Source: an uncultured Actinomycetes bacterium
GTDB lineage: Bacteria > Actinomycetota > UBA4738 > JBBDTT01
NCBI GenBank assembly: GCA_963742735.1
Contig: CAVUMN010000002.1
Coordinates: 64,001-128,000 of the forward strand
DNA length: 64,000 nucleotides
Reading direction: 5' to 3'
A model generated the notes under the pieces. That model did not search any database, had not been told where the DNA came from, and was given only the letters and a program-made list of their open reading frames with translations. Within the stretch, counting starts at the first letter, position 1. Each line of letters starts with the position of its first letter. Below, piece after piece: positions 16,889 to 29,292 of the stretch. Position numbers and translations under genes: made by a program.

Positions 16889-17773
16889 ATGGCCCCAGCC
16901 CCGCCCGTCAGGATCGTCACGGACACCACCGGCTACCTGCCGCAGGAGCTGGTTACCGAGCATGGGATCGAGCTCGTCTCTCTCTACTACTCCTTCGACG
17001 GCGCCGAGTGGCTGAAGGAGGACGACGTCGTGGACGGCGACTGGGGGCCGTTCTACGAACGGCTCACCTCGTCCCCGGGTCTGCCCACCACGCGGCCGCC
17101 CGAGGTCGAGGACTTCCGCGCGGTCTACGAGCCGATCCTGGCGACCGGCGCCGGCATCGTCTCGCTCCACATCTCCTCGGGCCTCTCCGAGACCTGCGCG
17201 CACGCCCGCAAGGCCGGCGAGCAGCTCGCCGACGAGGGGCTGGGCGCGGAGCGCATCCTGGTCGTGGACGCCGCGTGCACGGGCGGCCAGCAGGGCTTGC
17301 TGGCGCTGGCGGCCGCGCGGGCGGCGGAGGGGGGCGCCGACGCCGAGGCGGTGGCCGACCACGTCCGGCGGGCCCGTCTGGAGGCCCGGAGCTGGTTCAC
17401 GCTGGACACCCTGGAGTTCCTCAAGCGCGGCGGACGGATCGGCGGCGGCGCGGCGTGGCTCGGCTCGACCCTGAGGATCAAGCCCATCCTGACCATCCAG
17501 TCCGAGGTCCACGCGGTTGAGCGCGTCCGAACCCGCGAGCGCGCCGTCGAGCGCCTCATCGAGTTCGGCCGCGAGCTGCACGCCGGCGGCGCCGACGGGT
17601 ACTGCGTACAGCACGCTCGCTGCGAGCCGGAGGCCCGCCACGTCGTCGACCGGCTTTCGGAGGTCTACGAGCGCCCGCCCGTGTTCGTGGGGGAGATGGG
17701 CCCGGTCCTGGGGACCCATGGCGGGCCGGGGTTCCTGGGCGTCGCCGGGTTACCATCCGGCTTCCTCGAGTAG
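16889..17773 (+). CDS. DegV family lipid-binding protein (copy 1)
   Basis: IVTDTT.YLP, LEFLKRGGRIG, IKPIL, GTHGGPG. Confidence 0.9.
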   Translation: MAPAPPVRIVTDTTGYLPQELVTEHGIELVSLYYSFDGAEWLKEDDVVDGDWGPFYERLTSSPGLPTTRPPEVEDFRAVYEPILATGAGIVSLHISSGLSETCAHARKAGEQLADEGLGAERILVVDAACTGGQQGLLALAAARAAEGGADAEAVADHVRRARLEARSWFTLDTLEFLKRGGRIGGGAAWLGSTLRIKPILTIQSEVHAVERVRTRERAVERLIEFGRELHAGGADGYCVQHARCEPEARHVVDRLSEVYERPPVFVGEMGPVLGTHGGPGFLGVAGLPSGFLE

Positions 17774-17792
17774 CCATGGAGAGCCCCAAGCC

Positions 17793-18671
17793 ATGACGAC
17801 GCCGGTCACGGTGGTCACCGACACCACGGCCTACCTGCCGCGCGAGACGGTGGACAAGCACGGCCTGCGCGTGATCTCCCTCTACTACTCGTTCGGCAAC
17901 GACGAGTGGATCAAGGAGAGCGACCACGACGGCGGCGACTGGGGATCGTTCTACGAGCGCCTGTCGAGCTCCGACACCCTCCCCACCACCCAGCCCCCCA
18001 CGGTCGAGGACTTCCGTGCGGTCTACGAGCCCCTCCTGGCGGAGGGCGGAAGCGTGGTCTCGATCCACCTGTCGTCGGTGCTGTCGGAGACGTGCGCCAA
18101 CGCCCGCAAGGCGGTGGAGGAGCTCACCGAGGCCAGCCGGGGCGGGGACCGAGTCCGGGTGATCGACTCGGCGAGCACCGCGGTCCAGGAAGGGCTGTTG
18201 GCCCTGGCCGCGGCGCATGCCGCCGGGGAGGGCAAGGACGCGGACTCGGTCACGGAGGTGATCCGGTCCGCGCGGGCCGAGGCCAAGAACTGGTTCGTGC
18301 TCGACACCCTGGAGTACCTGAAGCGCGGCGGCCGGATCGGCGGCGCGACGGCGTGGATGGGGTCGGCGCTGCAGGTGAAGCCGGTCTTGACCCTCGAGTC
18401 GGGGATCCGCGCGGTGGAGCGCGTTCGGACGGCCGACAAGGCGTTCGTGCGCCTGGTCGAGTACGGCCACCAGCTCCACGGCGCCGGGGCCGACGCGTGG
18501 GCCGTGCAGCACTCCCGGCGGGAGGACGACGCCCGCAAGCTGATCGACCGCCTCTCCCACGTGTTCGGCCGCGCGCCCGAGTTCGTCTCCGAGGTAGGCC
18601 CGGTCATCGGGACGCACGCCGGTCCGGGCGCGTTCGGCCTCGGTGGCATCCCCTCCAGGTTCCTCGGCTAG
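17793..18671 (+). CDS. DegV family lipid-binding protein (copy 2)
   Basis: VVTDTTAYLP, LEYLKRGGRIG, GTHAGPG. Confidence 0.9.
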   Translation: MTTPVTVVTDTTAYLPRETVDKHGLRVISLYYSFGNDEWIKESDHDGGDWGSFYERLSSSDTLPTTQPPTVEDFRAVYEPLLAEGGSVVSIHLSSVLSETCANARKAVEELTEASRGGDRVRVIDSASTAVQEGLLALAAAHAAGEGKDADSVTEVIRSARAEAKNWFVLDTLEYLKRGGRIGGATAWMGSALQVKPVLTLESGIRAVERVRTADKAFVRLVEYGHQLHGAGADAWAVQHSRREDDARKLIDRLSHVFGRAPEFVSEVGPVIGTHAGPGAFGLGGIPSRFLG

Positions 18672-18819
18672 CTCTCCAGAAAGAGACCAGGGTCACAGTG
18701 TGCTCAAGGTCGGTCACTCTTCCCGTTCCGTACGGGCAGGACTAGAATGTGCTTGGTTCGAAGTAACTAGTCACCCGACACAGGAGCGCCCCGATGATCG
18801 AGCCACGCGAGGTCCCATC

Positions 18820-19698
18820 GTGACCTCGCCCGTCACGGTCGTCACCGACAGCACGGCCTACCTCCCGCGCGAGCTCATCGCCAAGCACGGGATCGAGCTC
18901 ATCTCCCTGTACTACAGCTTCGACGGCGTCGAGTGGCTGAAGGAGGGCGACGTCGAGGGCGAGGACTGGGGCCCGTTCTACGATCGCCTGGTCGCGTCCG
19001 AGACGATGCCGACCACCCGGCCCCCGCACGTCGAGGACTTCCGCGCGCTGTACGAGCCGATCCTGGCCGAGGGGCGAAGCATCGTCTCGATCCATCTGTC
19101 CTCCGGGCTGTCCGAGACGTGCGACCACGCGCGCAAGGCCGTGGAGGAGCTCACCGAGGAGGGCCTCGGCGGGGAGCGGGTGCACGTGGTCGACTCGGCG
19201 AGCGCGTGCCTGCAGCAGGCTCTGCTCGTGCTGGTTGCCGCCCACGCCGCGGCCGAGGGAGGCGACCCCGACACGGTCTTCGACCAGGTCCGCCGGGCCC
19301 GGGTCGAGGCGCGCAACTGGTTCGCCCTCGACACGCTCGAGTTCCTGAAGCGCGGCGGCCGGGTCGGCGGCGCCGCGGCCTGGCTGGGCTCGACGCTGAA
19401 GATCAAGCCCATCCTGACCGTGGAGTCGGAGATCAAGGCCGTCGAACGGGTGCGAACCTCCGACCGCGCGTTCGAGCGCCTGATCGAGTGCGGGCGCCAG
19501 CTCCACGGCGCGGGCGCGGACGCCTACGTCGTCCAGCACGCCCGCGCGGGGAAGGAGGCGCAGGTCCTGAGCGAGCGGCTGCACGAGGTCTTCGGCAGGC
19601 CGCCGGTGATGATGTCTGAGGTCGGGCCGGTCATCGGCACGCACACGGGGCCGGGACTGCTCGGCGTGGGCGGACTCCCGTCCAGATTCCTGGAGTAG
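18820..19698 (+). CDS. DegV family lipid-binding protein (copy 3)
   Basis: VVTDSTAYLP, LEFLKRGGRVG, GTHTGPG; GTG start inferred from paralog alignment. Confidence 0.9.
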   Translation: MTSPVTVVTDSTAYLPRELIAKHGIELISLYYSFDGVEWLKEGDVEGEDWGPFYDRLVASETMPTTRPPHVEDFRALYEPILAEGRSIVSIHLSSGLSETCDHARKAVEELTEEGLGGERVHVVDSASACLQQALLVLVAAHAAAEGGDPDTVFDQVRRARVEARNWFALDTLEFLKRGGRVGGAAAWLGSTLKIKPILTVESEIKAVERVRTSDRAFERLIECGRQLHGAGADAYVVQHARAGKEAQVLSERLHEVFGRPPVMMSEVGPVIGTHTGPGLLGVGGLPSRFLE

Positions 19699-19702
19699 GG
19701 CG

Positions 19703-22700
19703 ATGAACGAGCTGAGCGCCTCCTCGAGCTCGTCGGTCCCCTGCCCGCGGTGCGGCCGCGGGAACCGGGACACGGCCAAGTTCTGCAAGGGATGCGGCCT
19801 GTCCTTCGCGCCGGAGATCACCTGCGTGAGCTGCGGCAGCAAGCTCGAGGCCGACGCCGTCTTCTGCGACGAGTGCGGCACCGCGGTCACGGCCTCCCAG
19901 CCGGCGGTGAAGGCCCCGGTCCGCGAGTCGGCTCGACTGCCGGAGACCTTTGGGGGCGGCCGCTACAAGGTCGTCCGGTTCCTGGGCGAGGGGGGACGCA
20001 AGCGGGTCTACCTGGCCGAGGACACCCGGCTGACCCGTGAGGTCGCCGTCAGCGTCTTCAAGGCCGAGGGGGTGGACGAGACGGCGCTGATTCGCGCCCG
20101 GCGCGAGGCCGAGGCGATGGGCAAGCTCGGCGACCATCCCAACATCGTCACGATCTACGACTTCGGCGAGGAGGACGGCGGCTTGTTCCTCGTCAGTCAG
20201 TACATGTCGGGAGGCGACCTCTCGGGCATGCTCTCCCAGGCCCCGGACCGCCGGCTGGCGATCGCCGAGGTGGCGCGGATCTCCACGGAGATCGCCCGCG
20301 GCCTGGAGCACGCGCACGCGAACGGCGTGATCCACCGCGACCTCAAGCCCCAGAACGTGTGGCTGTCCCCGGACGGGACCGCCAAGCTCGGCGACTTCGG
20401 CCTGGCCCTCGCCGCCGACCGCTCCCGCCTGACCGTGGACGGGGCGATGGTCGGGACGGTCGCGTACATGCCGCCCGAGCAGGGTCTGGGCCGGCCGGCC
20501 GACGAGCGGTCGGACCTCTACTCCCTGGGCGCGGTGATGTACGAGCTGATCTGTGGGGTCCCGCCGTTCACCGGCGGGGACGCCGCGGCGATCATCTCCC
20601 AGCACGTCAGCACCGTTCCCGTCGGCCCCAGCTGGCACCGCTCCGACCTGCCCACCGCGCTCGAGCGGCTGGTGCTGAAGCTCCTGGCGAAGACCCCTGA
20701 TGAGCGGTTCCAGTCGGCCACCGAGACCCGCGAGGCACTCCAGGCCATCGAGTCGGCGTCGGGGGTCGCGCCGGCGCCCGCCGAAGGCACGGTCGCCCTC
20801 GAGCGTCTGACCGACGGCATCTTCCTTGGCCGGGAGTCCGAGATGAAGGAGCTTCGGGCGGCGCTCGACGAGTCGATCGCCGGTCGAGGGCACGTAACCC
20901 TCATTGCCGGCGACGCCGGGATCGGCAAGACGCGGCTGGCGACGGAGGTCAAGGCGTACGCCGAGCTCCGGGGCGCCCGGGTGCTCTCCGGCCGCTGTCA
21001 CGCCGGCGAGGGCGCGCCGCCGTACTGGCCCTGGGTCCAGGTGATCCGCACGTACGTCCGCGAGCGCAAGGCCGAGGAGCTCCTGGCCGAGCTCGGCTCC
21101 GGCGCCACCGACATCGCCCAGGTCGTCTCCGACGTCCGGGCCTGCCTGCCCGACCTCCCCGAGCCGCAGGTCCTGGACCCCGACCAGGCCCGGTTCCGGC
21201 TGTTCGACGCCGTCACCACGTTCCTGCGCAACGCCTCGAGCACCGGCCCGCTGGCGATCTTCATCGAGGACCTGCACCGCGCGGACGAGCCCTCGCGCGA
21301 GCTGCTGGACTTCGTATCCCGGGAGCTCGGCGGCGCGCGGATCTTCCTGCTCGGCACCTATCGCGACACCGAGCTCGGCGAGGACCACGCGCTGAACGAG
21401 CTCCACGCCTCACTGTCCCGCGAGCGCAATTACTCGCGCCTGCGCCTCCGGGGCCTGAACGAGCGCGAGGTCAAGGCGCTCCTGGAGGACGTGTCCCGCC
21501 AGACCCTGGAGACCACCCAGGAGCTCGCGCTGGTCGACGCGGTCTTCCGCGAGTCCGACGGCAACCCGTTCTTCATCGAAGAGATCCTGCGGACGCTGCT
21601 CGAGTCGGAGGTCATCTACCTGCGCGAGGGCAAGTGGGTGAGCGACGCGACCCACATGAGCGACCTGTCGATCCCGAAGTCCATCCGCGAGCTCGTGGAA
21701 CAGCGCCTGGCCCGGCTGCCCGAGGAGAGCCGGGAGCTCCTGTCGATCGCGTCGGTCATCGGCTACGAGTTCGACATGCAGACCCTGGAGACGGTGGCCG
21801 GCATCCCCGTGGCCTCGGTGTTCGACCGGGTGCGGGCGGCCGTGGACGCCGCCATCGTCTCGCCGGTCCCCGACGAGCCCAACCGGTACCGGTTCGCGTA
21901 CGGCGCCACGCGCGACGCGCTCTACGAGGAGCTTCCCGAGTCCCGCCGCTTCGAGCTGCACCGGGCCATCGGCGAGGCCCTCGAGGAGATGTACGACGAC
22001 CGCATCGAGTCCCACTTGGCCGAGCTGGCCCACCACTTCGCGCTCGCCGCCCCGCTCGGCCTGGCCGGCAAGGCCGCCGACTACTCGTGGTGGGCCGGCG
22101 AGCGAGCCGCCACGCTGGCCGCCCACGAGGAAGCGGTCCTGCACTTCACCCGGACCATCCAGCTGTTCGACACCTTGACCGAGGAGGAGCCCACCCGGCG
22201 GTGCGAGCTGCTCATCGTCCTCGGCGAGTCGCGGTGGCGGGCCGGGGACGTGCGGGGGGCGAAGGAGACGTTCCTCAAGGCTGCCGAGGCCGCCGAGAAG
22301 CACGCGCTGCGCGACCAGTACGCGCGGGCGGCGCTCGGCTTCGCCGGCGGGCCCGGCGGGTTCTCCGCCGCCGACAAGCCGGACGACCAGCTGGTCGAGC
22401 TGCTGCGCACGGCGCTCCGCGGCCTGTCCGAGCGCGACAGCCTGCTGCGCGTGCGGCTGCTGGCGCGCCTGTCCCTCGAGATGCGCCTGACCACCGACGC
22501 CGTGGAGCCGGACAAGCTCTCCCGCGAGGCGCTGGAGATGGCCGAGCGGCTGGGCGACGCGCGGATCACGCTGCTGGCGATGTACAGCCGCCAGTGGGCG
22601 ACGATGGGGCCCGACGGGCTCGAGGACGATCTGACCGCCGGCGAGGAGATCGTCCGGCTGGCCCGGGTGGTCGGCGACAAGGAGATGGACTTCCACGGCC

Positions 22701-24214
22701 ATCACCTCCGGATCCACGGGTTCCTCGCCCTGGGCGACATGGTCTCGGTCGACCGCGAGATCCGCAGCTGCGAGAAGCTGGCCCGCGAGCTGCGCCAGCC
22801 GTACTACGAGTGGCACGTGGCGGTGTTCAGGGTGATGCGGGCTCTCATGCAGGGACGGTTCGACGAGGCCGGCCGGCTGGCGAGCTCCGCGGCGGCGATC
22901 GGTGCGCGAAGCCAGCCGGAGATCGCCACCACCGTGTTCGGCGTGCACGCCCTGCTCGGGAGCCTCCACACCAACTCGATGGCCGACCTGGTCCCGGGGG
23001 GCGAGCTCTTCGCCACGAACTATCCCCACTCGGCGTGGCCCTCGGCCTACGCCTGGATTCTCACCGAGGTCGGGGAGAACGCCAAGGCCCGCCCGGTGTT
23101 CGACGGCGTGGCCCGTGACCGTTTCGCCGGCCTGCGCCGGGACTCGAATTGGCTGACCGCCATGACGTGCGGCTCCCTGGCGTGTAGCGCCCTCGGCGAC
23201 GAGGAGGCGGCCGCCGTCATGTACGAGCTGCTCTCGCCCTACGCCGACTACTGCACGTCGATCCTGACCGCCGCGGCGTTCGTGGGCTCGATCCATATGT
23301 ACCTGGGGTTCCTGGCCGAGACCATGCGCCACCTGGACACCGCGATCGACCACTTCCAGAAGGGCATCGAGGTGAACGAGCGGATCGGCGCGTACCTCCT
23401 GGTTCCGCGGACCTACTTCGGTCTGGCGAGGGCCCTGCTCGCCCGGGACGGGGCCGGCGACCGGGAGCGCGCGTCGCAGGCCATCGAGAAGGGGCTGGAT
23501 CGAGCCCGCGAGGTGCAGATGCCGGGCGAGGTCGAGCGCCTGCTGGGGCTGAAGCTCGGCGGGCAGGGGATCACCTCGATCGACACACAGGCGTCGATCT
23601 ACCTGGTGGCGAAGTCGGTGGAGCAGGCCCGGCCCGACCTCACCCGCGCCGTCGCGCCGGACGGGACCGTGACGATCATGTTCTCCGACATCGAGGACTC
23701 AACGGTTCTCACCGAGCGGCTCGGAGACCGGCAGTGGCTGGAACTCCTGGAGGGGCACAACCAGATCATCCGCGAGAACTGCGCGAAGCATGACGGCTAC
23801 ACGGTCAAGTCGCAGGGCGACGGCTTCATGCTCGCCTTCGCCAGCGCCCGCAAGGCCATCCACTGTGCGATCGACGTGCAGCGGGCGATGGCGGAGCACC
23901 GCGGTGCGCACCCCGAGGCGCCCCTCAAGGTCCGCATCGGGCTGCACACCGGCGAAACGCTTCGCTCCGAGGAGGACTTCTTCGGCAAGAACGTTATCCT
24001 CGCCGCTCGGATAGCCGCCCAGGCGACCGGGGACCAGATCCTGGTGTCGTGGCTGCTCCGCGAGCTCGTGTCGAGCACCGGTGAGTTCGGGTTCGGCAAC
24101 GAACGCGAGCTGGAGCTGAAGGGCCTCTCCGGCAGCTATCGAGTCTTCGAGGTCCAGTGGGATGGCGCTACCGCGCCGGGAGCCGCACCTGCAGTGAGCT
24201 CACCTCGATCCTGA
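19703..24214 (+). CDS. Multidomain signalling protein: double Zn ribbon + Ser/Thr kinase + AAA/STAND-type ATPase + helical repeats + class III nucleotidyl cyclase
   Basis: 4x CxxC; HRDLKPQN, DFG; Walker A GDAGIGKT, Walker B IFIEDLH, GNPFF; FSDIEDST, GDGF, RIGLHTGE. Confidence 0.9.
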   Translation: MNELSASSSSSVPCPRCGRGNRDTAKFCKGCGLSFAPEITCVSCGSKLEADAVFCDECGTAVTASQPAVKAPVRESARLPETFGGGRYKVVRFLGEGGRKRVYLAEDTRLTREVAVSVFKAEGVDETALIRARREAEAMGKLGDHPNIVTIYDFGEEDGGLFLVSQYMSGGDLSGMLSQAPDRRLAIAEVARISTEIARGLEHAHANGVIHRDLKPQNVWLSPDGTAKLGDFGLALAADRSRLTVDGAMVGTVAYMPPEQGLGRPADERSDLYSLGAVMYELICGVPPFTGGDAAAIISQHVSTVPVGPSWHRSDLPTALERLVLKLLAKTPDERFQSATETREALQAIESASGVAPAPAEGTVALERLTDGIFLGRESEMKELRAALDESIAGRGHVTLIAGDAGIGKTRLATEVKAYAELRGARVLSGRCHAGEGAPPYWPWVQVIRTYVRERKAEELLAELGSGATDIAQVVSDVRACLPDLPEPQVLDPDQARFRLFDAVTTFLRNASSTGPLAIFIEDLHRADEPSRELLDFVSRELGGARIFLLGTYRDTELGEDHALNELHASLSRERNYSRLRLRGLNEREVKALLEDVSRQTLETTQELALVDAVFRESDGNPFFIEEILRTLLESEVIYLREGKWVSDATHMSDLSIPKSIRELVEQRLARLPEESRELLSIASVIGYEFDMQTLETVAGIPVASVFDRVRAAVDAAIVSPVPDEPNRYRFAYGATRDALYEELPESRRFELHRAIGEALEEMYDDRIESHLAELAHHFALAAPLGLAGKAADYSWWAGERAATLAAHEEAVLHFTRTIQLFDTLTEEEPTRRCELLIVLGESRWRAGDVRGAKETFLKAAEAAEKHALRDQYARAALGFAGGPGGFSAADKPDDQLVELLRTALRGLSERDSLLRVRLLARLSLEMRLTTDAVEPDKLSREALEMAERLGDARITLLAMYSRQWATMGPDGLEDDLTAGEEIVRLARVVGDKEMDFHGHHLRIHGFLALGDMVSVDREIRSCEKLARELRQPYYEWHVAVFRVMRALMQGRFDEAGRLASSAAAIGARSQPEIATTVFGVHALLGSLHTNSMADLVPGGELFATNYPHSAWPSAYAWILTEVGENAKARPVFDGVARDRFAGLRRDSNWLTAMTCGSLACSALGDEEAAAVMYELLSPYADYCTSILTAAAFVGSIHMYLGFLAETMRHLDTAIDHFQKGIEVNERIGAYLLVPRTYFGLARALLARDGAGDRERASQAIEKGLDRAREVQMPGEVERLLGLKLGGQGITSIDTQASIYLVAKSVEQARPDLTRAVAPDGTVTIMFSDIEDSTVLTERLGDRQWLELLEGHNQIIRENCAKHDGYTVKSQGDGFMLAFASARKAIHCAIDVQRAMAEHRGAHPEAPLKVRIGLHTGETLRSEEDFFGKNVILAARIAAQATGDQILVSWLLRELVSSTGEFGFGNERELELKGLSGSYRVFEVQWDGATAPGAAPAVSSPRS

Positions 24215-25976
24215 ACCAGCCGTTCGACGGGCGCGCGTAGGGCGCGTCCGCGCCGACGAGCTCGAGCACGGCCGAGTTACCTTTCGCGAAGCGCCAGGCT
24301 CCGGGGTGCAGCCACCACGCGTTCGGACCATTCGCCGGGCGGTACGTACCCCGCGCGACCAAACGCTGCGACCCACCTCCCGGGGCGACGTCCCACAGGC
24401 GCGCGACGAGCTGGGCGTGCTCGGCCGGGACGCCGGTGACCGTCAGGTCGGCGGTGAGCCGTGGCGCACCGATCAGCGTCCACGCCGGGGCGCCCTCCTC
24501 CTTGATCACGTAGCGCGCGGTGCCGGGGGCGGTCTCGGCCGGCGTCTCGGCACAGACCGTCCCGGTCGCGGGGTCGATGGCCAGGGCCACGCGGGGGTCG
24601 CCGCTCCCCGAGACGACCGTCCGGGACCCGGTCGTCGCGAACACCACCTGCCGGCGGGCCAGGGCCGCGAACGTCGGGGCGACGTACGGCCCGAGGCTGG
24701 GCTCCGTCGCCGGACAGGTGACCACATAGGCCGTCACCCCCAGCCGCGGCGAGCCCTCGCCCTTCAGGTAGCGGTCGAACCAGCCGTGGATCCGCGCCAG
24801 CAGCTCGGCCCGCTCAACCGGCTTCTGCGCCGAGCGCTGGTGGCCGAAGTCGCCGAAGAAGAGCGACAGCGGCACCTTTGGATACATCCGGCGCATGCGG
24901 TTCGCGAAGCGCAGGGCCTCGTCCACCGGGAACAGGTCGTCGGTGAAGCCCGAGGCGATGAAGAGCGGGGGTGGGGGGCGGCTCGGGTCGATGAAGTACG
25001 CGGAGTGGTAGTCGCGTGCCACGCGAACGATGTCCGTCGCGACGGGGTCGGTGTACGGCTCGCCCAGGTCGATGCGCGCCACCGACCGCTGGATCTCGGC
25101 CTCCGGGTCGGTCCCCGGCAGGGCCAGGAAGCCCATCGGGCGGCCCGGGATGAACGGCTCGCCCACCGGCTGGCCGGGACCGATCGCGTTCTGGGCCGCG
25201 AGGAGGATCCCGTTCACGAACGATCCCTTCGGCACACCGATCGGGGAGTGGGCGACGGCGGCGCCGGTGACGCCGGTCGGTGAGACGCGCCCGTTCGGGG
25301 CGGCGGCGGTGACCAGGTCGCTCCACGGGATCACCGGCGCGGCCGCCGCGATCCGTAGGGGCCGGCCCGCCGGGCTCCGCCACGGGACCAGGCGGCCGTC
25401 CGGCAGCATGACCCGGTCCCGCAACGCGGCCAGCATCAGCGTCTGCCCGCCGCCGTAGGAGTCGGCGGTCACGCCGATCCGGCCCGCGGCGGCCACGCCC
25501 TCGTCCACCAGGCGGCCGATCAGGTGCTGCGCGTCCCGCACCTCGTAGCGGACGTCCGCCAGGTGGAGGTACCCGCCCAGGCAGGCCTCGGGGCTCGCCG
25601 CGCGCGACTCGGGCGTGCCGCACGACCCCCACAGCCCGCGCGCGGTGAACGTGAGGACCGCGTATCCCTCCCGGGCCCACGCGTAGGCGTTGTCGGTGTA
25701 CGCGGTGGAGGCCGGGTCCAGGTACTCGTGCTTCGAGTTGCCGAAGCCGTTGAGCTCGACGACCAGGGGAAGGTCGCGGGCGCCCTCGGCGGGCAGCGTC
25801 ACGGTCGTGTCGAGGGGCACGCCGTCCCACGTCTCGGCCAGCCCCGAGCACAGGTACACGCCCTCCGCCGGCCCGCAGTCGGTCAGCCCCAGCGGGGGTG
25901 CGGACGCGGTGGCGGTGCCGGCCGGCATCCCCAGCACGAGCGAGACGGCCAGCGCGAGTGGGCGGGCTCGACGCAA
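24168..25976 (-). CDS. Secreted CocE/NonD-like (S15) hydrolase
   Basis: Signal peptide, RG.WGSCG, DSYGG nucleophile; TTG start inferred; overlaps the kinase 3' end by 47 bp. Confidence 0.75.
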   Translation of the reverse strand: MRRARPLALAVSLVLGMPAGTATASAPPLGLTDCGPAEGVYLCSGLAETWDGVPLDTTVTLPAEGARDLPLVVELNGFGNSKHEYLDPASTAYTDNAYAWAREGYAVLTFTARGLWGSCGTPESRAASPEACLGGYLHLADVRYEVRDAQHLIGRLVDEGVAAAGRIGVTADSYGGGQTLMLAALRDRVMLPDGRLVPWRSPAGRPLRIAAAAPVIPWSDLVTAAAPNGRVSPTGVTGAAVAHSPIGVPKGSFVNGILLAAQNAIGPGQPVGEPFIPGRPMGFLALPGTDPEAEIQRSVARIDLGEPYTDPVATDIVRVARDYHSAYFIDPSRPPPPLFIASGFTDDLFPVDEALRFANRMRRMYPKVPLSLFFGDFGHQRSAQKPVERAELLARIHGWFDRYLKGEGSPRLGVTAYVVTCPATEPSLGPYVAPTFAALARRQVVFATTGSRTVVSGSGDPRVALAIDPATGTVCAETPAETAPGTARYVIKEEGAPAWTLIGAPRLTADLTVTGVPAEHAQLVARLWDVAPGGGSQRLVARGTYRPANGPNAWWLHPGAWRFAKGNSAVLELVGADAPYARPSNGWFRIEVSSLQVRLPAR

Positions 25977-26112
25977 GGAGAGGATTGTGACGCGTTGGCG
26001 GGGGTTGCGGAAATGGGCACCTTGACCGGCGTTCGCCCCAGTGATTGGGTAATCGTCAGATTTGTCCAACTGAGCTGGACTGCGCTCCGCGGTCCCGAGG
26101 GGAGAAGGCACC

Positions 26113-27654
26113 ATGCGTGCTCGGTCGATCGCTCTGCTCAGCATCCTGACCATTGTCGCAAGCATGTTCGGCATCACCACGGCGACGGCCGGCGGGCCGA
26201 TCACGATCATGGTCGACGACGACGGCATGGCCGTCCCGGGGAACTGTGGGTCCACGACGGTGACCCACGACACCATCCAGGAAGCGGTGGACGCGGCGCT
26301 GGCCGGGGACACCATCAGCGTCTGCCCGGGGGACTACCCCGACCCGGTCAACGTGGACAAGACCCTGGAGATCCTGGGTGCCCAGGCCGGGGTCGACGCC
26401 CGCACCCGGCCGGGGACGCTCTCCTTGGAATCCGCCGTGGGGCCGGAAGGTGAGAGCTTGCTGGGATTCTTCGTCACGGCCCCGAACGTGGTCATCTCCG
26501 GGTTCATGTTCATCGGCTGGTCCGACGCCGTCAGGAGCACCTCGGAGGCCGCGAGCCTCCGGGTCCTCGACAGCATCTTCTCCGAGAACTTCGCCGGTCT
26601 CCGGATCCAGTCGAACAACAGCCTGGCCCGTCGGAACCTGTTCGCCGACAACTTCGTCGGCATCCTGATGTTGGGCGGGACGAAGGCCCTCTTCACGCTG
26701 AACGACTTCCTGGGCAACGACGTCGGGATCGACCTCGAGGGGGACACGGACGACTTCACCGGTCAGGGAGAGCCGCCTCCCATCAATCCCTTCCCGACGG
26801 ACGTCCGGATCCTGCGGAACGAATTCCTGGGCCCCGATCTGGGTCCCGGCGAGGTGGGGACCAACACCATCTCGCAGACCGTGGGGATCGAGGCCTCGAG
26901 CACGACCGGCCTGATCATCACGGAGAACACCATCTCCGAGGTCCTGATCGGGATATGGCTCGCCGGAGGCACCGACGCGACGACCGTCGAGCTGAACGAC
27001 GTGAGCGCATTCGATGTGGACCTCCTCCTCGATGACGGCGGGCAGATCAGCACCACCGACGTCTGCTGTGCGCCGAACTCGAACGTGACGGTCAAGTCCA
27101 ATCGCCTCACGAACAGCGGCTCGGGCATCGCGATCTTCTCCCTGACCGGGTCCATGGTCGTGTCCCGCAACACCATCACGGGGAACAACGGCGGGATCTT
27201 CAACGACTCCGGCGCCCAGGTGAACGCGGCCGAGAACTGGTGGGGCGCCGCCTCCGGCCCCTCGGACTGGTCCACGGGGACCGGCGACCCGGTGTCGCCG
27301 GACGTTCGGTTCTTCCCGTGGTCCACGAACGCGACGTTCACGGCGTTCTCCAAGTGCAAGAACACGCCGACGGCCGCGAACCAGACCATCAACGGGACCA
27401 CCGGCAACGACATCCTGTGCGGCGGCGGCGGTCAGGACACCATCGACGGCAAGGCGGGTAACGACCTCATCCTGGGCGACGCCGGTAGCGACATCCTGAT
27501 GGGTGCGCTGGGCGCCGACGCCATTCTGGGCGGCCAGGGAGACGACACCCTCAACGGCAACGCCGGGTTCGATCACCTGCAGGGACAGTCCAACTCCGAC
27601 TCGTGTCTGGTCGGGGTGGACGGAGGACAGACGGCCACCTGCGAAGGACCCTGA
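26113..27654 (+). CDS. Secreted right-handed beta-helix protein with C-terminal RTX-like Ca-binding repeats (paralog 1)
   Basis: Signal peptide, TIQ.AVDAA..GDTI.VCPG.Y, NAAENWWG, G.xG.D.L nonapeptides. Confidence 0.8.
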   Translation: MRARSIALLSILTIVASMFGITTATAGGPITIMVDDDGMAVPGNCGSTTVTHDTIQEAVDAALAGDTISVCPGDYPDPVNVDKTLEILGAQAGVDARTRPGTLSLESAVGPEGESLLGFFVTAPNVVISGFMFIGWSDAVRSTSEAASLRVLDSIFSENFAGLRIQSNNSLARRNLFADNFVGILMLGGTKALFTLNDFLGNDVGIDLEGDTDDFTGQGEPPPINPFPTDVRILRNEFLGPDLGPGEVGTNTISQTVGIEASSTTGLIITENTISEVLIGIWLAGGTDATTVELNDVSAFDVDLLLDDGGQISTTDVCCAPNSNVTVKSNRLTNSGSGIAIFSLTGSMVVSRNTITGNNGGIFNDSGAQVNAAENWWGAASGPSDWSTGTGDPVSPDVRFFPWSTNATFTAFSKCKNTPTAANQTINGTTGNDILCGGGGQDTIDGKAGNDLILGDAGSDILMGALGADAILGGQGDDTLNGNAGFDHLQGQSNSDSCLVGVDGGQTATCEGP

Positions 27655-27720
27655 GCAACTGTGGCATTGTTCCGCACACACGAACGGGCGCCGGCTGGGG
27701 GCCCAGAAGGAGGAAGAACG

Positions 27721-29292
27721 ATGCGTCGTCGGTCGGTCGCTCTACTCAGCATCCTGACGCTTGCCGCGGGACTCCTCGGGATCACCGGGGCCCACGCTGG
27801 CGGCCCCATCACCCTGGCGGTGGACGACGACGGCATGGCCGTCCCGGGGAACTGCGACTCGGCGACGGCGACGTTCACCACGATCCAGGCGGCGGTGGAC
27901 GCCGCCCTGGCGGGGGACACGATCCAGGTGTGCCCGGGGACCTACGAGGAACAGGTGTACGTGGACAAGACCCTGGAGCTCCTGGGGGCCCAGGCCGGGA
28001 TCGACGGCCGCACCCGGCCCGGAACGCCGGCCGTGGAGTCCGTCCTGGACTCGGACGCGGTCGACCAGACGGGCATCTACGTCGACGCCCCGAACGTGGT
28101 CATCAACGGGTTCCTCATCCAGGGCTATGACGCCGGCATCAGCACCAACATCATCATCGACCCGGTCCCGGCCTCCGGGCTCCGGGTCCTGAACAACATC
28201 CTCTTCCAGAACGGGACCGGTCTCCAGATCGAGTCGGACAACAGCCTCGTCCGCCGAAACCTCTTCGAAGACAACGTCCTCGGCATCCACATGCTCACCG
28301 GGACGAAGGCCACGTTCACGACCAACGAGTTCCTTGGCAACCACGCCGTCGGCATCCTGCTCGAGGGCTGCTTCGAGTACTGCGACTCGGGCATCAACGG
28401 TTTCGGCCCCCCGACGGACGTGACCATCTCGACGAACGAGATCGTGGGCCCGGAGATCACGGAGACCGGTGGCGGGGGCGGTGGGGGCCCGACGGTTGGG
28501 ATCGAGGCCCACAACACGACCGGCGTGCGGATCACCGGGAACAACATCTCGGTGGTGGATTTCGGAATCTGGCTCGCTGAGGGCAACGACGCGGTGACCG
28601 TCGAGACGAACACCGTGGACGACACGGGGATCGCCCTCCTGCTGGGCTTCCTCCGGAGGGAGGTCAACACGGAGGGGATTGGCGGCGGTCCGAACTCGAA
28701 CGTCACGGTCAAGTCCAACCGCTTCACCAACAGCGAAACGGGCATCGAGATCGACGACTTCTCGCTCTCCGGGAACTTCGTCGTCTCCCGCAACACCATC
28801 ACGGGGAACGATGACTGGGGGATCGTGAACTTCTCCAGTGCCCAGGTGAACGCGGCGGAGAACTGGTGGGGCGCCGCCTCGGGGCCGTCGGACTGGTCCA
28901 CCGGGACCGGTGACTCGGTTTCGCCCAACGTCCGGTTCTTCCCGTGGTCCACGAACGCCACGTTCACCACGTTCGCCAAGTGCAAGAACAAGTACACGGC
29001 CGGCAACGACACCGTCAACGGGACCACCGGCAACGACATCCTGTGCGGCGGCGGCGGTCAGGACACCATCGACGGCAAGGCGGGGAACGACCTCATCCTG
29101 GGCGACGCCGGCAGCGACATCCTGATGGGTGCGCTGGGCGCCGACGCCATCCTGGCCGGCCAGGGCGACGACACCCTGAGGGGCAACGCCGGGTTCGACT
29201 CCCTGCAGGGCCAGGCCAACTACGACTTCTGCGATGTCGGGGTCGACTCAGGACAGATCGCCACCTGCGAGGAAGTGCCCATAGGACCCTGA
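27721..29292 (+). CDS. Secreted beta-helix/RTX protein (paralog 2)
   Basis: Same architecture; GGAGG RBS. Confidence 0.8.
   Translation: MRRRSVALLSILTLAAGLLGITGAHAGGPITLAVDDDGMAVPGNCDSATATFTTIQAAVDAALAGDTIQVCPGTYEEQVYVDKTLELLGAQAGIDGRTRPGTPAVESVLDSDAVDQTGIYVDAPNVVINGFLIQGYDAGISTNIIIDPVPASGLRVLNNILFQNGTGLQIESDNSLVRRNLFEDNVLGIHMLTGTKATFTTNEFLGNHAVGILLEGCFEYCDSGINGFGPPTDVTISTNEIVGPEITETGGGGGGGPTVGIEAHNTTGVRITGNNISVVDFGIWLAEGNDAVTVETNTVDDTGIALLLGFLRREVNTEGIGGGPNSNVTVKSNRFTNSETGIEIDDFSLSGNFVVSRNTITGNDDWGIVNFSSAQVNAAENWWGAASGPSDWSTGTGDSVSPNVRFFPWSTNATFTTFAKCKNKYTAGNDTVNGTTGNDILCGGGGQDTIDGKAGNDLILGDAGSDILMGALGADAILAGQGDDTLRGNAGFDSLQGQANYDFCDVGVDSGQIATCEEVPIGP

Follow-up and report, generated by a model that had tools for sequence, protein, structure and literature searches.

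In a 64,000-nt stretch of DNA from an uncultured Actinomycetes bacterium (GenBank assembly GCA_963742735.1, contig CAVUMN010000002.1, positions 64,001 to 128,000 of the forward strand; hereafter the window, in the numbering of which all coordinates are given), one gene encodes a large protein, P0001, with a protein kinase domain in which the lysine of strand beta-3 is missing and another lysine is found in the glycine-rich loop. P0001 is a cytoplasmic multidomain signalling protein that combines a zinc ribbon, a kinase, an ATPase of the signal transduction ATPases with numerous domains (STAND) class, tetratricopeptide repeats (TPR) and a class III cyclase. The gene and its domains are the following:

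19703..24214, + strand: whole gene, an open reading frame (ORF) of 1503 amino acids (aa), from the ORF list, the translation and Pfam
19742..19879, + strand: double zinc ribbon, residues 14-59 (Pfam DZR PF12773, E 5.7e-9, 36.4 bits, cut-off 27.3)
19964..20713, + strand: Hanks-type Ser/Thr protein kinase domain, residues 88-337 (Pfam Pkinase PF00069, E 1.3e-46, 159.6 bits, cut-off 31.7)
20822..21331, + strand: AAA_16 STAND-type NTPase domain, residues 374-543 (Pfam PF13191, E 7.6e-28, 98.5 bits, cut-off 32.6), with the Walker A motif GDAGIGKT in the translation
22397..23392, + strand: TPR-like helical repeats, approximately residues 899-1230, a weak assignment (TPR_MalT 27 bits, TPR_2 22.7 bits, both below their cut-offs); Pfam TPR families are present in homologues of P0001
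23660..24130, + strand: class III nucleotidyl cyclase domain, residues 1320-1476 (Pfam Guanylate_cyc PF00211, E 2.1e-20, 73.5 bits, cut-off 21.9)

The draft assembly of the source genome comprises 5 contigs and 3.08 Mb, is 88.9% complete, and has a G+C content of about 71%. It contains six kinase domains, of which that of P0001 alone has the lysine in the loop, the other five being canonical. Within the kinase domain of P0001, the following elements were assigned:

19985..20011, + strand: glycine-rich loop GEGGRKRVY, G95-Y103 (translation, alignment to StkP and structural model)
20042..20062, + strand: strand beta-3, VAVSVFK (phmmer alignment to StkP)
20105..20107, + strand: alphaC glutamate, Glu135 (177/177 in domains with the loop lysine)
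20333..20356, + strand: catalytic loop HRDLKPQN, intact (in domains with the loop lysine, Asp 177/177, Lys 175/177, Asn 177/177)
20393..20401, + strand: DFG, intact
20393..20479, + strand: activation segment from DFG to PPE, with a conserved Thr (T244) and a GT motif (DFG Asp, GT Thr and APE-type Glu 177/177 in domains with the loop lysine)

The initial annotation had described this kinase as WNK-like, with a lysine in place of the third glycine of the loop, no lysine in the beta-3 VAxK motif, and intact HRDLKPQN and DFG motifs. With a minor correction of coordinates, this description was confirmed. Lys100, encoded by the AAG codon at 20000-20002, occupies the third-Gly position of the glycine loop in the translation as well as in the phmmer alignment to StkP among the PDB sequences. 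This alignment runs without gaps from the glycine loop to beta-3, with the same spacing in both proteins, and places Lys100 opposite an Ala of StkP and Ser117 (20051-20053) opposite the Lys of the StkP motif VAVK. VAVS is encoded by 20042-20053; the preceding Glu, which had been included in this range as part of EVAVS, lies one codon upstream, at 20039-20041. A second lysine, Lys120 (20060-20062), is located three residues beyond Ser117. Glu135 corresponds to the alphaC glutamate that is the usual salt-bridge partner of the catalytic lysine. In the activation segment, R162 and T164 (domain numbering) are conserved in at least 90% of the sequences of an alignment of homologues (A1). The glycine loop of P0001 is also strikingly basic, with Lys100 flanked by two arginines (R-K-R). 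The resemblance to WNK was borne out, given that K233 of WNK1 is found at the same third-Gly position (PMC1821047; here and below, statements on published work refer to the accessible parts of the cited sources).

The distribution of the two lysines was analyzed across homologues. The best 120 matches of a full-length search, together with the results of a search of representative proteins, yielded 440 aligned kinase-domain rows. Among the best 120 full-length matches, most of which share the architecture of P0001, the loop Lys is present in 118, and the two exceptions are multi-kinase proteins with 36-39% identity. In the alignment, 157 of the 440 rows have the loop Lys, and the beta-3 residue in these rows is Ala (135) or Ser (22). 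We then binned 512 domains by their identity to the P0001 domain, excluding the trait columns, so that the group was not defined by the trait. All 175 domains with at least 50% identity have the loop Lys, and in all of them the beta-3 Lys is replaced by Ala or Ser. Below 50% identity, there are 314 canonical domains, 22 domains without both lysines, and a single domain with the loop Lys alone. This single domain, in the 40-45% identity bin, is probably the first kinase domain of P0126, a metagenomic protein of 3024 aa that combines a GAF domain with a tandem pair of loop-Lys kinase domains and two STAND ATPase modules. Not one of the 512 domains has both lysines: a Lys at the loop position occurs in 0 of the 314 domains with the beta-3 Lys, and the beta-3 Lys is present in 314 of the 336 domains without the loop Lys. 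Altogether, we compiled 177 loop-Lys domains, some of which may be counted in both the protein set and the genome set. Their beta-3 position is occupied by Ala in 154 cases and by Ser in 23, and their pairwise identity goes down to 40%, with a median of 60.5%. The loop Lys is thus invariant (177/177) down to this level of identity, and the co-variation of the two positions, which had been proposed as a check, was found without exception in the sample.

A second selection, also independent of the trait, was made with a threshold of E <= 1e-75 across 401 genomes of the phylum. The family was detected in 18 of these genomes, including the source genome, and all 20 family loci in the 17 other genomes show the lysine swap. 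Without two unpublished genomes (G148 and G048, with three loci), the family is present in 16 of 399 genomes, and the swap in 17 of 17 loci. The canonical background consisted of at least 78 generic kinase loci with 34-43% identity, obtained from a genome-contig search with alignment A1. The lysine swap is a trait of the clade, and more than a product of chance.

Several residues inform on the state of the active site. The alphaC Glu, the HRD Asp, the catalytic Asn and the DFG Asp are all intact in each of the 177 loop-Lys domains. The same four residues are all intact in 277 of 312 canonical domains, and in 4 of the 22 domains without both lysines. In addition, 177/177 loop-Lys domains retain the GT Thr, the alphaF Asp, and the APE-type Glu as well as its partner Arg in the C-lobe. 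In the adenine pocket (domain numbering), V22 is retained in 177/177 and A35 in 176/177. Because the core residues are complete in all loop-Lys domains, in contrast to 4 of 22 domains without both lysines, the clade resembles active kinases and, as far as the residues indicate, would behave like these and not like decayed ones. The sequences suggest that the P0001 domain is a Ser/Thr kinase that is probably competent for catalysis and controlled via its activation loop.

The ancestry of the domain was addressed with a tree of 70 loop-Lys and 65 canonical domains, subsampled from the 177 loop-Lys domains and 341 others. For the loop-Lys sample, every genome locus was kept along with the members that diverge most, and the rest was drawn at random. 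The loop-Lys and canonical domains are split on a single branch, with one change and a support of 99 (FastTree; IQ-TREE with the trait columns dropped). The stem of the loop-Lys clade measures 0.59 changes per site, and there is no close canonical sister in the sample. The swap has a single origin, in the clade's ancestor, and has been kept since.

By sequence, the closest solved relatives of the P0001 kinase are StkP and PknB (E ~1e-55, phmmer against PDB sequences). An AlphaFold2 (AF2) model of the domain has the bilobal kinase fold, with a mean predicted local distance difference test score (pLDDT) of 89.9, a predicted template modelling (TM) score of 0.88, and low pLDDT in the activation loop (residues 155-170). 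In this model, beta-2 begins with Lys100, and beta-3 comprises domain residues 32-39. The model matches PknB with TM scores of 0.81-0.85 (Foldseek), and with a Z score of 33.9 and a root-mean-square deviation (rmsd) of 1.7 over 253 residues. Of 1910 PDB sequence matches to the kinase domain, the best 60 do not include WNK, and neither do the best 35 Foldseek or 50 VIA rows, which are led by bacterial PknB-type kinases; this ranking has no bearing on a difference in fold. By sequence, fold, and tree, the P0001 kinase is a PknB-type bacterial Hanks kinase. Since its nearest relatives and its fold are PknB-type, the likeness to WNK appears convergent, in support of the convergence suggested at the outset, and the bacterial nearest neighbours point to a separate descent, with the swap arising independently of eukaryotic WNK.

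According to the record names, members of the clade come from Actinomycetota (including several Mycobacterium species), Thermoleophilaceae, Chloroflexota and Dehalococcoidia. Within the phylum the distribution is patchy: the protein family is present in 10 of the 21 genomes of one taxonomic family, and the E <= 1e-75 search detected it in none of the listed genomes of the source organism's own order. This patchiness hints at loss or horizontal transfer. In five genomes of Planctomycetota searched with PF00069, the best 30 loci were all canonical, although a ranking by Pfam score favours canonical kinases.

The loop-Lys module is not confined to the architecture of P0001. It also occurs in the orders kinase-cyclase-SPOR (P0240) and cyclase-kinase (P0213), and without a cyclase (P0116 and P0049). 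The nearest NCBIfam model is TIGR03903, against which P0001 scores 298 bits, with a cut-off of 705.75; P0001 is not a member of that family of kinase/cyclase fusions. Five proteobacterial genomes, three of them myxobacterial, were searched with TIGR03903, and no match exceeded the cut-off. Kinase motifs could be read at 11 loci of these five genomes, and every one of these loci is canonical; 6 of the 11, from the myxobacterial genomes, encode proteins of 1300-1430 aa that are TIGR03903-like but score below the threshold. Because the kinases of these TIGR03903-like kinase/cyclase loci are canonical, the swap is a trait of the clade and not a feature of the architecture.

The catalytic positions of the cyclase were counted in 133 cyclase domains of the family. 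In the alignment columns that we take to be these positions, the expected residues are present in 129 (Asp), 130 (Asp), 114 (Lys), 119 (Asp), and 128 (Arg) domains. The cyclase of P0001 (23660-24130) retains both metal-binding Asp residues, the substrate-binding Lys and Asp, and the transition-state Arg. Class III cyclases usually have a transition-state Asn four residues before this Arg. At that position, P0001 has an Ile, and the 133 family domains have Ile in 93, Asn in 25, and Val in 7 cases. Judged from these residues, the P0001 cyclase may be weak, altered, or regulatory.

Comparison with known systems places the P0001 layout close to that of the WNK kinases. Lys233 of WNK1 is located in the glycine loop at position 55 of protein kinase A, the third Gly of GxGxxG (Kannan et al., PMC1821047); it comes from beta-2, replaces Lys72, and is needed for activity (PMC4718504, PMC1821047, PMC10211241). 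In 2007, WNK was called the only functional family of eukaryotic protein kinases without the beta-3 Lys (PMC1821047), to which POMK was added later (PMC10211241). Like WNK, P0001 has a Lys at the third-Gly position and no beta-3 Lys, and it keeps the alphaC Glu, the HRD motif and the metal-binding Asp. The beta-3 position is occupied by Cys in WNK1 and by Ser117 in P0001, and the two also differ in ancestry, which is that of the bacterial PknB/StkP/PknA kinases in the case of P0001, and in context, namely the fusion with a STAND ATPase and a cyclase. A further difference is the DFG motif of P0001, which in WNK kinases reads DLG and is linked to chloride binding. WNK kinases also carry autoinhibitory and CCT-like accessory regions; among the Pfam domains of P0001 (DZR, Pkinase, AAA_16, TPR, and cyclase) there is no WNK accessory domain.

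In POMK (SGK196), the missing VAIK Lys is likewise supplied from beta-2 and the glycine loop, and its mutation abolishes activity (PMC10211241, PMC12599244). However, POMK, which phosphorylates a sugar, has neither the alphaC Glu nor canonical HRD and DFG motifs, whereas the P0001 domain keeps those residues. A parallel to WNK has also been described for the CAK-chloro subfamily, in which the positive charge moved from position 72 to position 55 (Met72, Arg55; Kannan et al. 2007, PMC1821047). These choline/aminoglycoside-kinase-like enzymes differ from P0001 in that they are small-molecule kinases, have an Arg instead of a Lys, and have lost the alphaC Glu, which is invariant in the P0001 clade.

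The bacterial kinases PknB, StkP, PknA, and Stk1 are similar to the P0001 domain in sequence (E 1e-53 to 1e-55, 36-39% identity) and structure (Z 33-34 and rmsd 1.5-1.9 across some 253 residues), and the PknB relatives share its catalytic loop, DFG, and GT...PE segments. They differ in having the beta-3 Lys and G, A or S at the third-Gly position, and in being membrane receptor kinases with PASTA domains instead of fusions with a STAND ATPase and a cyclase. PknK itself has the canonical lysine. Both PknK-type proteins (kinase, AAA_16, and TPR; atlas preprint, 10.1101/2025.01.12.632604) and the TIGR03903 kinase/cyclase fusions of TOMM systems are, like P0001, cytoplasmic multidomain proteins in which a Hanks kinase is combined with an AAA_16/STAND ATPase, TPR repeats and/or a class III cyclase.

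A 2025 review lists seven bacterial pseudokinase families without the VAIK Lys, ActPs1-3, GLW, CP1, DYD, and DLHK (PMC12599244). According to the descriptions in its accessible text, ActPs1-3 and GLW have degraded HRD and DFG motifs; DLHK has a degraded DFG and a helicase context; DYD has an Arg at beta-3, no alphaC Glu and the DYD motif; and CP1 is cyanobacterial or proteobacterial and associated with COG3899 and GAF/PAS domains (PMC12599244). Set against these descriptions, the P0001 clade fits none of the seven families, because its HRD, DFG, and alphaC Glu are intact, its beta-3 residue is Ser or Ala, and its context, unlike theirs, is a cyclase fusion in Actinomycetota and Chloroflexota. 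The word 'cyclase' is absent from the accessible text of both this review (PMC12599244) and the atlas preprint (10.1101/2025.01.12.632604). A search of the full-text literature, limited to the main text of articles, turned up no account of a glycine-loop lysine in a bacterial Hanks kinase, which is not to say that none is in print.

Taken together, we consider it likely, from sequence comparisons, that P0001 contains a working kinase with a relocated catalytic lysine that is convergent with WNK and embedded in a STAND/cyclase signalling protein. As far as the initial interpretation could be checked computationally, each part of it held. The beta-3 lysine has been lost, leaving Ser117 in P0001 and Ala in most relatives, and its role would most likely be taken over by Lys100 at the third-Gly position, the start of beta-2. 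By analogy to Lys233 of WNK1 (PMC4718504, PMC10211241), Lys100 would reach ATP's alpha and beta phosphates and pair with Glu135. The kinase would phosphorylate Ser/Thr, probably after phosphorylation of its activation loop, where T244 is conserved, and probably works in concert with the cyclase and the STAND nucleotide switch of the same polypeptide. The ATP contact of Lys100, the kinase activity, and the coupling to the other domains are what we infer from the layout and its conservation.

Several points weigh against a working kinase of this kind. The members of the loop-Lys clade are closer to one another (median identity 60%) than those of the comparison sets, and therefore the apparent conservation of the clade is inflated. 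As a single swap underlies it, the perfect co-variation represents one evolutionary event on one branch and not statistical replication, so the weight of the evidence lies in the retention of the swap and not in the co-variation. The tree holds no WNK sequence, and the case for an origin independent of WNK relies on the nearest neighbours, which are bacterial. The cyclase of most members lacks the usual Asn, which makes a partly non-catalytic protein conceivable. Furthermore, a pseudokinase is formally defined by a missing VAIK Lys, HRD Asp or DFG Asp (PMC4718504; 10.1101/2025.01.12.632604), and by this sequence definition the P0001 domain, without its VAIK Lys, is a pseudokinase, although the definition also catches the active WNK kinases. 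Accepting this classification, which is the criterion of the bacterial atlas (10.1101/2025.01.12.632604), the domain could bind nucleotides without catalysis and serve as a conformational or ATP-sensing module for the STAND ATPase and the cyclase, with Lys100 contributing only to ligand binding or to the structure of the loop. Such a role would be in line with the finding that the loop-Lys kinase always occurs within large multidomain scaffolds, and with the fact that, in the motif numbering assumed here, the cyclase of most members also lacks the canonical catalytic Asn. Yet residues that are required only for phosphotransfer are invariant or close to it in the clade (HRD Asp and GT Thr 177/177, catalytic-loop Lys 175/177), while the domains without both lysines are decayed, with the four core residues intact in just 4 of 22. 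Moreover, WNK and POMK demonstrate that catalysis works with exactly this layout (PMC4718504, PMC10211241). We therefore regard a non-catalytic domain as unlikely, though not as far-fetched.

Alternatively, the beta-3 lysine might be functionally replaced by Lys120, for instance through a bulge or a register shift, and Lys100 might be incidental. Lys120 had been named as an alternative candidate, and its conservation is indeed strong: among the 177 loop-Lys domains, the position three residues after the beta-3 site is occupied by K in 168, R in 4, D in 2, E in 2, and N in 1. Lys120 is a hallmark of the clade, as canonical domains of the first data set vary at this position and have mostly P, R, S, H or L. 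Nevertheless, it is less conserved than Lys100. The five members with D, E, or N at this position (P0036, P0224, L016, L017, and L018) keep Lys100 and all catalytic residues, and Arg is tolerated at the Lys120 position but never at position 100. The gapless StkP alignment and the VA pair in canonical register, with A35 in 176/177, also argue against a shift. In the AF2 model, Lys120 (domain residue 40) lies just past the end of beta-3 at residue 39. On a beta-strand, an odd offset places a side chain on the opposite face, and that of Lys120 would be expected to point away from the beta-3 lysine site by this general geometry. Alignment and model thus make Lys120 the weaker candidate for a catalytic role, and we consider it very improbable that it replaces the beta-3 lysine. 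It is hardly credible that the layout is an artefact that stems from misalignment, from a sequencing error, or from the decay of the gene in this one genome. A draft assembly in 5 contigs with 88.9% completeness calls for general caution, but the reading frame is open over 1503 codons with all domains intact, the same residues are found in 176 other domains from many sources, the alignment to StkP has no gaps, and the antisense and off-frame ORFs across the gene have no Pfam match.

The neighbourhood of the gene was also inspected. Directly upstream, three DegV-family paralogues are arranged in tandem on the + strand (16889-19698; Pfam PF02645, E 1e-62 to 1e-69), as is the kinase gene, and the last of them stops 4 bases before its ATG. 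No DegV gene was found within 1.5 kb of the gene at the 20 other family loci. On the - strand, an ORF of 715 codons (24168-26315) with matches to S15/S9 peptidases is convergent with the kinase gene, and the listed overlap comprises the last 47 bases of the gene. Farther downstream, two neighbouring ORFs on the + strand (26113-29292) match right-handed beta-helix/NosD proteins and RTX calcium-binding repeats and probably encode secreted or surface proteins.

In WNK1, chloride binds in a pocket behind the ATP site and blocks autophosphorylation (PMC4718504). By analogy, the relocation of the lysine could free a pocket in the loop-Lys clade, and its members could be sensors of an anion or another small ligand that gates autophosphorylation and, via the STAND ATPase, cyclic-nucleotide synthesis. 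We consider this improbable; if true, it would represent a prokaryotic ion-sensing kinase-cyclase in which the WNK principle has been reached independently.

The beta-3 Lys is the residue that is most often mutated to obtain a 'dead' kinase, and its absence automatically leads to the label pseudokinase. Motif rules of this type would mislabel the proteins of the loop-Lys clade as pseudokinases. The clade represents an independent natural replicate for the questions why and how this lysine can move and what else must change alongside it, the candidates for such accompanying changes being the R-K-R sequence that makes the loop basic and the conserved Lys at position +3 from the beta-3 site. It links a variant kinase to a STAND ATPase and to cyclic-nucleotide signalling in Chloroflexota and in Actinomycetota, including, according to the record names, some non-tuberculous mycobacteria.

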